From Octopus vulgaris (Eukaryota): DNA of 64,000 bases. Below the pieces are notes generated by a model. The model worked only from the letters and a program-made list of their open reading frames with translations, was not told the DNA's origin and made no database searches. The stretch lies in assembly GCA_951406725.2 (NCBI GenBank), contig OX597828.1:64914001-64978000 (forward strand). The letters are read 5' to 3'. Shown here piece after piece: positions 1,008 to 39,997 of this stretch. A program made the position numbers and the translations under genes. Position 1 is the first letter of the stretch. Every line of letters begins with the position of its first letter.

Positions 1008-1185
1008 TATATATATGCAAAATTTAGAGGACTAACCACTAAAAGTGGACAGTTTATATGCTAGATATAGTCGTCAAAACCGCTATTTTCCACGAAGAAT
1101 GTGTTCTCAAGAAAAAAACTCAACAAAAAACCAAAGTGTAAAAATAAGCAAGACAAATGAAAATATACGAAATAAAAAACAATTA

Positions 1186-1262
1186 ACTATGTACTAATTA
1201 GTTTCACTTGTTAATATTCACGTATATGTACACGCGAACATCTGCAAAATCATCAGCATAGT
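1186..1262 (-). ncRNA. Type I hammerhead ribozyme (inverted copy of 2066-2142)
   Basis: Reverse complement of the motif at 2066-2142. Confidence 0.75.
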
Positions 1263-2065
1263 CTGTCGTTTACAAAATACAATTTCCAGAACTTAGATAC
1301 AGAACGCTCAACCAAAATCCATTATGTATATAGTTCTACAAATTATATTTATGTGAATCTTTCAACTCAATACATGTCCTGTACTTATTTTGTATGTTCT
1401 AGCATTTTGTCCTGTACTCGTTTCTTGTGTATTTCTCGTATTTTTCACTCGTTAGTGATGTCCTGTACTTAATATGTATTATTTATTTATATGTTTAAAT
1501 ATATATATATATATATATATATATATATATATATATATATATATATATATATATATATATATATATATATATATATATATATATATATATATATATATAT
1601 ATATATATATATATATATACATATATATATATATACATACATATATATATACATATATATATATATATATATTTAAACATATAAATAAATAATATATATA
1701 TATATATATATATATATATATATATATATATATACATATATATATACATACATATATATATATATATAATATATATATGCATATATATATATATATTATA
1801 TATATATATATATACATATATATATATATATAAACATATAAATAAATAATACATATTAAGTACAGGACATCACTAACGAGTGAAAAATACGAGAAATACA
1901 CAAGAAACGAGTACAGGACAAAATGCTAGAACATACAAAATAAGTACAGGACATGTATTGAGTTGAAAGATTCACATAAATATAATTTGTAGAACTATAT
2001 ACATAATGGATTTTGGTTGAGCGTTCTGTATCTAAGTTCTGGAAATTGTATTTTGTAAACGACAG

Positions 2066-2142
2066 ACTATGCTGATGATTTTGCAGATGTTCGCGTGTAC
2101 ATATACGTGAATATTAACAAGTGAAACTAATTAGTACATAGT
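2066..2142 (+). ncRNA. Type I hammerhead ribozyme with palindromic stem III
   Basis: ACTATG-CTGATGA-[long G.U-rich stem II]-GAAAC-TAATTA-GTA-CATAGT. Stem I ACTATG/CATAGT is 6 bp perfect; stem III ACTAATTAGT is a palindrome; predicted cleavage after GUA (2136). Confidence 0.8.
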
Positions 2143-36710: not shown

Positions 36711-38509
36711 ACAGTATTCATAAAGTACTAAACAGCACTCTTCATTTTGGCATTTACATACCCGACTCCTCGAATCATCATGATACATGTAACTCTACTC
36801 CAATATTCAGATGACTTGCACTCCTCCACATTCTCAACTATAATTTTAATCATGATGCCCTCGCACTCGGTGTCAAATTTAACCCAAACACATTGTATAT
36901 ATATATATATATATATAACACTCATATTTTCTTTTTTTCCTGATGAATGACAAATAATCTCAGTTTTACGACATTTTGTAGAGGTTTCCATTCGATGGTG
37001 ATTTGTATTTCTGTCACTCATTTGTTTTTCTGTGTATGTGCGTATGTGAGAAAGAGAGAGAGAGAGAGAGAGAGAGAGAGAGAGAAAGCGAGAGAGAGAC
37101 AGTCAGACTGACACACCGGCAGACACCCAAGTATGTTACTATGAGATAGTCATGTCGCTATACGATATATATACTTGCGTTGTTATATCTATATTTCTAC
37201 GAATATGTTAACGCATATATGTGTCTGTGAATGCGTGCAAGAGGATGGATATTTATACGTGTGTATGCTGGTGAATGAGAGGGTGTCAGGTACACGTAGT
37301 GGACAATTTGTCTTTGTTTTATCAAACTGTTCACGAACGCCCTAAACGAGGTTAATGTCTGCGAAAACGGATCTACTCTGACCCAGTACCTTGTAAATAT
37401 CAATGGCAACTGATCTAATATCCTGATTTTGCATTTAACATGCCCCATTGACTGTTCTTGTTATAGATATTAGCGTTACTGTTTCATTCGTAGTATACGT
37501 TGATACAATATCGTTTTGGGGCCACATTATCATCTTCTATCCTCAGACGCATAAACACACATATACACAGTCGTGTATATATATATACATATATATAAGG
37601 GGTGGGTGAACGTATGAGAGAGCACGTGTTTCCATCTAGATGCGTATGACCTCTTCTCATCTCTGTATCATAGCATTCCACTTCTACTATCTTACTATCA
37701 GACACTCTATCCCCTCTATTTTGCTATTTTGCAATGGAAACGAACATAAGCTGCATGACTGGGATATATTACGGCGTGCATCTAACAATGTTCATACCTT
37801 ATGCTGGTAATGGCGAGCAATGGGACGAATTAGCTAATTTAATAACGACAATTAACAGAGAAACACTTATATGTATAGATCTTTTAAAAATCCGATTACG
37901 TTTTCTGCGTTTTGAATTACTTATAACGTGGCTCGATTTTCGCCCACTACTCTATCCGCTGGTTATCGTCAAACCATATTGAATATTGTAGTAGAGTGTG
38001 GAATTATCTACCCAGCCCAGATACTTCGGTAATGTCTCGCACATTTCAGCGTACTCTTAAATAATATTATTACTCCCTAAAATGGTAAGTCCTTCTGACA
38101 AGGAACCAATAGAGCACCTAGATGGAGAAATAATTCCTGGGATCCTCCCTGAAAAATGCCCGACAAGCGAAAGGTTATGGAGTTGATGATAATGCCACAG
38201 AAAACGAATTATTATGTCCTAATATATAAGATGACAAGAAGAAAACAATCCTTTCCGACGACCAGTGGAGTTTCAATCTGTATAACCTGCAAAATAGGTA
38301 AAATATAAATCTACAATCCACATTAGTGGGTTGTAGGTTTATATTTTTGCTATCTTGACTATGAAGGAGTGATGCTACTTTTACGATTTTTTACTTTGGA
38401 GGAGTGATGCTAGAACTGCGAAATCTTGCATACATGCAGTTTCAATGTTTCTTATTACTAACTGACATCAGACAGTTCACAGAGGATTTTCAAAGTAACT
38501 AATAGCGGC

Positions 38510-38915
38510 TGCACCTGAAAATGTACAAAATTCGTGGTGTAAATATTTACCTGAAGAAAATGAATTAGCCCCCAAAAAATCCATGGTGACATGGTTGCTT
38601 CTTTAGGGTATGATGCGCCAGCTTTATCAATATTATAAATGCGGGCAGCTGAATATAGAATGGGACGGGAGCGACTTTAAGATGATCCAAAGTCTGGGCC
38701 ACCTTGGAAAATTTTGATCCTGCTTTCTATAGTCGATGTTATCAGCACATCCCGTAATAGAGTTGAGCATATTCTGCATATTCAATTTGGAATAATGAAG
38801 ATTTCTGCTCGGCGAGTGCCACCTCATCTGACACCAGATCAAATGTGCACCAACCTCATCACATCACAGGAAAATCTGACATTGTTTGAAGCAGCTCCAG
38901 CTGGTTTCATAGAAA
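38510..38915 (+). mobile_element. Decayed mariner transposase N-terminal relic
   Basis: IHGDMVASLGYDAP, DDPKSGPP, VEHILHIQFGIMKISARRVPPHLTPDQ (compare WVPxxL). Confidence 0.8.
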
Positions 38916-39596
38916 CAAATCATTTGGGTCACAGATAGCTAGCGAACAGGGTAAAAAAATTCGTTATTAGCGATGGAAGCAGTATTACGTCTCACGCAAC
39001 GGGAATAGACTGCTAGAATGCCACAGTATTGCACTTCGTATAGACGTATTGTGCTAAATAGAATAGAATGTATTATATTTATAATATTGTTGTTCTTAGT
39101 ATAATAGCAACTAGCATAATAGCAACGTTGGCAATTTTACTACTGTGGACAGCGAATTAAGGCGATATTCGCGGTATTCCAAAGAGTAATAAAATTGCTT
39201 TAATGAGAATATAAACGGAATTGCGGACGTTTCACCCGCTGTGTTTATGTGTGATTTTCGGCACTTACCATGCAGTTTGATTTATATCATTAATATTAAC
39301 TGTAATTAAGTTGCAATCTGTGTTTGTTAGCTATACGTTTCTGGCGCAGAATATGTAATTCCGTGTTGATGTCTGCTTAATATAATTCATTTCACTTGGA
39401 TATTAATATTCCTCTGGATATATGATCATCGTGTCGCTCATTCTTTTACGTTCTCTTTAGCTAGAAACCAATATTATTTTAATGGCGTGAAGTCTACAAT
39501 TAGACGTAAGCTTCCGTAAGCCGTTTGGAACCTTCTTTAAAACTATTCATATTTCTTTCTGCGGTTAATGGCTTTCAGAAAAAAATATTTTAGTTA

Positions 39597-39997
39597 CACC
39601 CTTTGTGGTTAGCCATACTGAGATGGCTATTATACTTTACATTGTCGAGCGATTACTGTTTACATCTCGTTCAGAGATTTAATAATGCTTGCAGACAGTT
39701 TTTCGAAATCAGTGACGGAATTTACTAGAAAAACACATATATTTGCATACAGGCTTTCCCTTTCATCGTAATCCGGTGATTATCGCCCGTTGACAAGAGG
39801 CAACAACCTCGAAACCGCGGTCCGGTGTGTATCACTTAGGCTTACGAGAAAGGGATGGCCTCCTTTTGCAAATACCATAAGGGCACAGATAGTGTGCCTA
39901 AAGCCAGCTGGAGACGATGATCTCCTGGGGCTAAAAGCTACAGTAACACCCACCCTTTGTGGTTCGCCATATTGAGATGGCTATTATACTTTACATT
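39597..39997 (+). mobile_element. 354-bp unit with 47-bp terminal direct repeat and central decayed hammerhead (retrozyme/pLTR-like)
   Basis: Direct repeats at 39597-39643 and 39951-39997; hammerhead-like motif at 39784-39827. Confidence 0.6.
39784..39827 (+). ncRNA. Minimal type I hammerhead with two core transitions
   Basis: CCG-TTGACAA-GAGG-caacaa-CCTC-GAAAC-CGCG-GTC-CGG; palindromic ACCGCGGT stem III; canonical core would be CTGACGA. Confidence 0.6.

Follow-up and report, generated by a model that had tools for sequence, protein, structure and literature searches.

We describe five families of hammerhead ribozyme motifs in a 64,000-nucleotide (nt) stretch of the Octopus vulgaris genome (here the window: GenBank assembly GCA_951406725.2, contig OX597828.1, positions 64,914,001 to 64,978,000, forward strand), one of which appears to record the reverse transcription of spliced RNA by a Penelope-like element (PLE). 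The families are named after their window loci, A (2072/1256), B (11281), C (14155), D (21785) and E (39790), each window motif being a single member of a family that is dispersed. Hammerheads, tails, inverted arms and targeting of TA repeats are the known PLE pattern; the occurrence of family C in both spliced and unspliced form is the new part. On balance, we favour the view that this PLE family routinely retrotransposes spliced sense RNA, producing hundreds of intron-less, promoter-bounded copies, recurrently from several source alleles and with both arms of a fold-back primed on one RNA. Retention of the intron would then reflect selection among templates, and splicing would shed short hammerhead elements. 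We hold with greater confidence the broader account, in which three of the families are coding Hydra-type PLEs and two are units without an open reading frame (ORF) whose 3′ ends are PLE-driven, all of them copied from uncut sense RNA.

Searches for family members covered the whole assembly (2.8 billion bases in 227 contigs); L-numbers are labels of genome loci fetched for comparison. Long copies of family C share one layout, consisting of a 26-nt exon, the donor GTATGT, an intron, the acceptor TTTTAG, 13 nt and the ribozyme core. The intron measures 895-904 nt (about 899 nt) in seven of the 11 long copies fetched, those extending as far as the exon, and its GT is intact in five. Short copies break off abruptly some 100 nt upstream of the cleavage site, and in these the exon is joined exactly at the acceptor position, with an unambiguous breakpoint. 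A second donor, GTAAGT, lies 1,973 nt upstream of the acceptor, and both arms of L057 show it joined to that same acceptor. Of the first 100 exact matches to the junction, out of 400, 62 are intron-less, 29 are intron-bearing and 9 carry a sister leader. Opposite-strand pairs less than 1 kb apart, counted by hand among the matches listed, belong to the same junction class in 9/9 cases. The family is young, its copies being 98-99% alike.

The 5′ ends of the short copies are similarly regular. Of 49 such copies, 26 end no more than 5 nt from the start of the 26-nt exon, and one (L295) continues upstream. The letters at this point resemble an initiator consensus, so that transcription would start there. 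The window copy holds this exon start and would therefore derive from the intron-less form. Because a GT-AG intron can be removed only from sense RNA, the template of the intron-less copies would be the sense strand, which runs against the antisense proposal made in the accessible part of PMC3846280. It is likely, judging from these junctions, that the short copies were copied from spliced sense RNA. In A, B, D and E, no spliced variant was seen beside the core. A pattern search for read-through beyond the family C tail returned five matches, all ending in TA. Abundant genomic PLE copies without their intron were not found described in a literature search that left most subscription journals outside.

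Two other descriptions of family C were dropped. That of a linear unit resembling a short interspersed element (SINE), with a fixed 5′ end, was given up once copies turned up that have a long stretch upstream in common. A mitochondrial origin of the upstream part was also abandoned, the stretch being the intron and 3′ untranslated region (UTR) of the element. It was noticed first in three family C copies, which share it in place of the usual short end, and there are 1,324 candidates for it. Contigs of four runs that we guess to be RNA cover the family C stretch piecewise; starts, strand and splicing are not readable in them. Relatives of family C at L221, L172, L318 and L319 (80-90% alike) have short leaders partly homologous to the 26-nt exon and are likely spliced forms of other parents.

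Families B, C and D are, on sequence grounds, the 3′ ends of coding Hydra-clade PLEs; the likeness to Hydra-1_Obim was judged by eye. The parent of family C is seen at L396, where a 745-codon open frame with reverse transcriptase (RT) and endonuclease (EN) lies directly upstream of one long copy. L395, the other long copy fetched with its upstream sequence, has the EN end only, and the EN of this parent matches PF01541 at E 1.5e-4, just under the cut-off. For family B, a GIY-YIG remnant lies 0.7-1 kb upstream in 3/25 copies (L044, L036 and L041), of which L044 is the closest EN copy (91% alike). With the L044 frame as query, a B-like end stood 0.4-1.1 kb downstream of EN in most of 30 EN loci. 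Relatives of B at L311-L314 have 717-aa open frames in the order inverted arm, pseudo-long terminal repeat (pLTR), tail, ORF, pLTR, TA. Their pLTRs are 74-76% alike to B, and L396 is 38% alike to the 717-aa ORFs over RT. The window copy of family D runs upstream into an EN remnant at 22734-22370, which gives a tblastn E of 1e-33 to a family copy and an E of 0.0086 against PF01541, below the cut-off. Four of the 25 family D loci pass tblastn, and inverted remnants occur in L089 and L090; the D parent is known from EN remnants only.

The traits of Hydra-clade PLEs given in the accessible part of Craig et al. 2021 (PMC8557442) recur in these families. Their protein features are a C-terminal GIY-YIG, RWK, DKT, a CxCx5C linker, CxxC and CxH, with no CCHH. 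Here, a single ORF with RT and, at the C-terminus, GIY-YIG is present in L311-L314 and L396. RWK and DKT occur together in L311 and L382, and L396 has DKT, its N-terminus being truncated before RWK. The linker, CxxC and CxH are found without CCHH in L311 and L396, and the linker also in D copies. A type I hammerhead with a palindromic stem, (TA)n targets, 5′ truncation, an inverted 5′ copy and a tail at one end are likewise shared, and the B, C and D parents all combine a hammerhead in the pLTR with (TA)n insertion. The described tendency to a size under 3 kb holds for the B relative (about 2.6 kb) and not for C (more than 4 kb). Non-autonomous status, in the sense of having no coding form, does not apply to B, C or D, for all of which coding forms were found. 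Further differences are that several families here have many open frames of 717-745 codons, and that tails measure 44-89 nt rather than 30-40 nt. The length of family C, its long pLTR introns and its abundant intron-less copies go unmentioned for Hydra elements in the accessible part of that paper.

Several observations adjoin these parents. Between its RT and EN, the family C ORF (L396:1593-3827) has a long stretch rich in asparagine, reminiscent of the N-rich inserts reported for rotifer Penelope ORFs in the part of PMC3846280 available. EN remnants upstream of the short C copies L056, L064 and L297 were rejected as C parents, being nested insertions in other elements. A young Neptune-type PLE (L315, L316) has many 781-aa open frames, a U3-A8 hammerhead and a TA end, and an upstream frame precedes its RT. 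Another Hydra-type family, with frames of 725-727 aa, also ends in TA. The Poseidon-like EN family at L352-L381 has a minimal U3-A8 motif about 130 nt past its ORF and often a TA end.

End and target counts were made on 18 A, 25 B, 50 C, 25 D and 25 E copies, six duplicate loci having been removed beforehand. Each family has two fixed 3′ ends, at +181 and +270 nt past the cleavage site in A, +152 and +230-237 in C, and +171 and +215 in E; B and D likewise have two, with tails near 65-70 nt. A TA run begins no more than 8 nt past the 3′ end in 15/18 A, 19/25 B, 45/50 C, 10/25 D and 8/25 E copies, compared with 3.9% of random places. Inverted arms are present in 8 A, 8 B, 28 C, 6 D and 7 E of the scored copies. 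A tailed arm is paired with a tail-less one in 27/28 family C and 6/8 family A fold-backs, and two alike arms occur in none. Tail-less ends are also found solitary, without a partner arm. Copies of all five families extend through the cleavage site, with variable 5′ truncation.

An earlier note, made from the letters of the window alone, had described three of its five hammerhead loci as TA-bounded fold-backs with unpaired tails, and had placed the elements mostly inside TA microsatellites. The fold-backs are as it said, the measured tails span 44-89 nt, and all five families exceed the 3.9% background (8/25 to 45/50). Its geometry of a short arm plus a tail is right for 11281 and 14155 and wrong for 2072/1256, which has two tail-less 478-nt arms. 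These family A arms show no substitutions over 477 aligned positions, compared with 88-92% likeness among other family copies, and both include 128 nt absent from every other copy. The locus is likely a recent local duplication around a TA tract, or an assembly artefact, rather than the usual insertion geometry. At window 930-1012, next to the family A arm, a TA tract forms the centre of a short, perfect inverted repeat. Similar flank inversions stand beside 3/22 family C 5′ junctions and also at L311. A general inverted duplication of the target flank at 5′ junctions was considered and is not supported, being seen at 3/22 C junctions with a background test (53 versus 30) that was spoiled by simple repeats.

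The hammerheads themselves are imperfect, not textbook, in the window copies. A strict descriptor recovered 0/5, and a relaxed one gave three sites (2072, 1256 and 21785) against a shuffle mean of 0.3 and maximum of 2. All five type I motifs are nevertheless there, with the stem III sequences that the earlier note had named, and show the 3-8 pair and stems I-III of the type. First-look candidates number 2,959 for A, 2,275 for B, 1,410 for C, 2,324 for D and 2,971 for E, of which 40 per family were scored. In a random megabase, composed of 100 evenly spaced 10-kb stretches of the assembly, the descriptor made 36 matches, compared with 1 in the reversed sequence and 0-2 in eight shuffles; a looser descriptor made 45, compared with 2 in the control. 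Matches over all loci form 41 clusters, 21 of them with at least two members, in line with the suggestion of many unrelated PLE-type families. The claim of a palindromic stem III is also borne out: with this stem left unconstrained, 7/12 matches were fully palindromic and the control gave 0 matches. Core pairing is conserved as well. In family A, 97.4% of cells are paired and three pairs have changed on both sides among 17 distinct copies. In a relative of family E, U3-A8 is replaced by C3-G8 (an alignment of 9 rows, with four more divergent rows of alignment A2 omitted as out of register). Rfam called no hammerhead among the best 150 of 443 matches in the window, among three matches at 39600-40000, or on three family C loci, where nothing matched; its listed window matches were microsatellite-driven microRNA matches only, and were set aside. 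A C at core position 4 (L311-L314 and family D) is fixed in a family with open frames, in what is a putative ribozyme.

Families A and E have a different organisation. Each is a head-to-tail repeat through a fixed junction, with a period of 533-539 nt in A and 350-355 nt in E (units of about 535 and 352 nt). They are dispersed as 1-1.8 units, a partial unit lying upstream in 7/18 A and 15/25 E copies, and their longest ATG frames are 38 and 50 aa. Dimers were found at the E locus L106, with two whole hammerheads, and in the 362-nt family L200, and in none of the 18 A copies. A and E thus have the ORF-less head-to-tail unit with one type I hammerhead that defines retrozymes. From their sequences, they are units that resemble non-LTR retrozymes and carry PLE insertion marks. 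Retrozymes of this kind (Cervera and de la Pena 2020, PMC7229834; Li et al. 2026, 10.64898/2026.07.22.740005) are, in the accessible parts of these papers, ORF-less units of 350-540 nt that repeat head to tail, bear a single type I hammerhead and occur as monomers and dimers, and PLEs have been proposed there as their mobilisers. In contrast, A and E show two fixed 3′ ends, inverted arms and TA or AT-rich targets. A further ORF-less 362-nt head-to-tail hammerhead unit (L200:8629-9038, minus strand; L195; L203) has five matches in the random megabase and includes a dimer with a TA end.

We propose that the PLE endonuclease nicks AT-rich or TA DNA and that the RT copies uncut sense RNA, beginning at either of two fixed internal start sites. 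Both nicked target strands would prime on one RNA, one per start site, so that one arm of the resulting fold-back is tailed and the other tail-less. Primed near the 5′ end of the spliced transcript, short family C copies would be complete cDNAs of that end, the promoter lying inside the terminal repeat; because they stop at the first exon, they would be without the ORF. Priming at the far end of the unspliced transcript would give the long copies, and the intron would persist in the family because only unspliced copies pass on both intron and ORF. A and E would be passengers of the retrozyme type, moved by these same enzymes. Cleavage by the hammerhead, if it occurs, would take place in the dimer and would be dispensable for making the template.

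Fold-backs might instead form after the first cDNA, whose 3′ end would snap back and be extended on a DNA template, the second arm being ended by the endonuclease or by an internal site resembling TA, with no second priming on RNA. This is possible, and we consider it the less probable course. Several C copies have near-perfect hairpins at the 5′ junction, the tail-less site lies within TA-like element sequence, and self-priming has been proposed in the accessible part of PMC3846280. However, tail-less ends also occur without an arm, as expected of an RT start site, and both target strands were cut and extended in vitro (PMC11167929). It is unlikely that the short C copies are a non-autonomous subfamily that arose by one DNA deletion, or from one old spliced copy, and was amplified from that master. 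Short copies are slightly more alike (1.2% divergence within the class) than long ones (2.2%), and related short forms with homologous leaders are seen without a long form. Nevertheless, a single breakpoint that coincides precisely with GT and AG argues against one master, as does a second donor joined to the same acceptor. The two classes also share variants, seven variable columns having similar frequencies in 49 intron-less and 13 intron-bearing copies, and they interleave on the family C tree (12 label changes compared with 12.1 when shuffled), where well-supported, starred branches force at least three changes.

The earlier note had inferred that all five families are tiny, non-coding, ribozyme-processed elements, moved in trans, and had suggested that they may help build up the TA content of the genome. 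As a whole, we find this very improbable. A and E agree with it in having no ORF longer than 50 aa and fixed permuted junctions, as do the two whole hammerheads of the E dimer L106 and the strong TA targeting; and the PLE partners with RT and GIY-YIG that it invoked exist, as open RT-EN frames in the genome and a GIY-YIG remnant in the window. The description as tiny and non-coding stands for A and E, in which no ORF was found, but is refuted for B, C and D by their coding parents. Since copies of all families run across the cleavage site, there is no evidence here of ribozyme processing, nor any sign of cut templates, and 571/699 TA regions are untouched by such elements. We give next to no credence to the idea that the motifs match by chance within AT-rich repeats, or that assembly artefacts account for the fold-backs. 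The locus at 1017-2312, with its identical arms, may be such an artefact, and Rfam calls none of the motifs; yet there are 36 motifs per Mb compared with 0-2, arms elsewhere diverge like separate old copies, and motifs stand at the expected place in open-frame PLEs, which refutes this idea for the families.

Several points weigh against the copying of spliced sense RNA with paired priming, and against the wider account. Splicing, start site and template strand are all read from DNA copies, and snap-back on the first cDNA would likewise yield concordant arms. The family C tree is poorly resolved, with 4/59 branches starred and one long-branch row. Family C arms stand at a distance of 0.019 from their own main copy and 0.026 from other copies, the own copy being closest in 7/24; this small advantage is expected under neutral decay and contributes little. 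Arms nearly as distant from their own copy as from others would date from insertion, and the arm comparison gave no sign of homogenisation between them. Family E is only weakly TA-targeted (8/25). The covariation counts are few events among related sequences, and just 2/5 window motifs fold better than shuffles. PLE protein remnants were found upstream in 0/18 A and 0/25 E copies. No coding partner sharing an A or E end appeared in the sampled EN loci, which represent few PLE families, and two further EN types used as queries gave no partner for A, C or E. Family C itself seemed ORF-less until its long form surfaced, so A and E may have parents too.

Comparable systems share much with the families described here. 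Minimal hammerheads of PLEs, in the accessible part of Cervera and de la Pena 2014 (PMC4209133), comprise many families per genome, mostly as single motifs from truncated PLEs. Opposite-strand pairs 100-700 bp apart, the U3-A8 variant, a palindromic helix III and a dimer model also feature there. An intron ending next to helix I is described in Drosophila virilis, and that of family C is alike. By comparison, motifs that look intact number about 36-45 per Mb in the octopus, long extensions are frequent in stem II, and a C3-C4 core occurs in an open-frame family. Penelope of D. virilis (Schostak et al. 2008, PMC2377424) has a pLTR that contains the start site, a short first exon and an intron, with both spliced and unspliced RNAs, and shares head-to-head inverted repeats with the PLEs of Adineta vaga (Arkhipova et al. 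2013, PMC3846280). Genomic copies keep their introns in the accessible accounts of both species, whereas intron-less copies are the majority in family C (first 100 of 400 junctions) and occur in both fold-back arms. The Poseidon element of Anolis, studied in vitro (Frangieh et al. 2024, PMC11167929), has two internal RT starts that define the tail, cuts both strands in AT-rich DNA and uses uncleaved RNA as template. It belongs to a different clade from the Hydra-type parents here, and fold-backs and splicing are unaddressed in that work.

This kind of element, of which the earlier note could not tell whether it was catalogued, is on record for octopuses: the accessible supplement of PMC8557442 lists Hydra-1_Obim of Octopus bimaculoides, with (TA)n and a hammerhead with a palindromic stem III. 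Inverted copies, tails and a TA preference are published PLE traits in the same source. A 2026 repeat annotation of O. vulgaris assigns 6.83% to PLEs, and the accessible part of its supplement mentions neither hammerhead nor Hydra (PMC13282606). As for the introns, an antisense template (PMC3846280) and selection against intron-less copies (PMC2377424) have been proposed, and their significance was still called unknown in 2021 (PMC8557442), in the parts of these papers that are accessible. Family C, as read from its junctions, argues against the antisense-template idea for intron retention. With both classes, two donors and paired arms, it allows template strand, splicing state and the way in which inverted arms arise to be counted from one genome. 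If our reading is true, PLE intron retention would be selection among templates, rather than a mechanism that is antisense or blind to splicing. To retrozyme-type units, whose earlier link with PLEs was homology and co-occurrence, A and E add genomic marks of insertion driven by PLEs. In annotation, a short hammerhead fold-back is best kept out of the non-coding families until a long form has been sought.

The elements use TA tracts and do not explain most of them. TA runs of at least 6 units occupy 2.8% of the random megabase and, in the window, 6.0%. Natural copies, 72 of them used as a library, matched 47 kb of the random megabase in 269 blocks, a figure that leans to the upper side as some pieces may hold flanks. 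TA stands at an end of 120/269 blocks, compared with a background of 8.7%. Just 128/699 TA regions touch a block, which leaves little of the suggestion that these elements account for the extreme TA content. A tRNA-like SINE, with 104 matches in the random megabase and a window copy at 11043-11186, also ends in TA, in 45/96 copies.

Table 1. Hammerhead families and their relatives in the window; core coordinates run up to the cleavage base.
Feature	Position	Strand	Remarks
Family A inverted duplicate	1017..1494	-	identical to the 1835-2312 block
Family A copy	1835..2312	+	128 nt of non-family sequence, then 1963-2312 of the ORF-less unit, which is circularly permuted in other copies; tail-less 3′ end in TA
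Family A hammerhead core	2072-2136	+	
Family A hammerhead core	1256-1192	-	
Family C relative, fold-back	5754..6161		hammerhead absent, only the 3′ module present; tailed arm plus tail-less arm; TA at both ends
Family B inverted tail-less arm	11213..11257	-	outer end in TA
Family B 3′ pLTR and tail	11270..11435	+	5′-truncated coding Hydra-type PLE
Family B hammerhead core	11281-11331	+	imperfect stem III in window copy; read by eye, confirmed via family
Family C inverted tail-less arm	13997..14122	-	outer end in TA
Family C, start of 26-nt exon	14131..14141	+	joined to hammerhead exon; small internal deletion
Family C hammerhead exon and tail	14142..14446	+	splice acceptor position to TA tract; parent L396 plus L389
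Family C hammerhead core	14155-14217	+	found by later, relaxed scan
Family D decayed coding PLE	21593..22770	-	5′-truncated; GIY-YIG remnant 22734-22370, 3′ UTR, hammerhead, tail
Family D hammerhead core	21785-21719	-	C3-C4 core variant; found by relaxed scan
Family A relative, 3′ piece and tail	29077..29262	+	ends in TA; no hammerhead
Second family D fold-back	33365..34163		tail-less arm 33876-33365 (-), tailed arm 34004-34163 (+); decayed hammerhead; overlooked by the earlier note
Family E	39599..39997	+	about 1.1 units of permuted 350-355 nt ORF-less repeat; copy outside TA
Family E hammerhead core	39790-39822	+	3-bp stem I, U3-A8 core; read by eye, confirmed via family

The window holds other features besides these. 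Further decayed PLE remnants, pieces of EN and RT, lie at 55959-56081 and 60295-60471 on the plus strand (tblastn E 2e-7 and 9e-5). Decayed ends of reverse transcriptases resembling those of long interspersed elements are visible in frames at 12700-13750 and 41845-42258. A G protein-coupled receptor of the rhodopsin family occupies a single 412-aa open frame at 30665-31903 on the minus strand (PF00001, E 7e-21).

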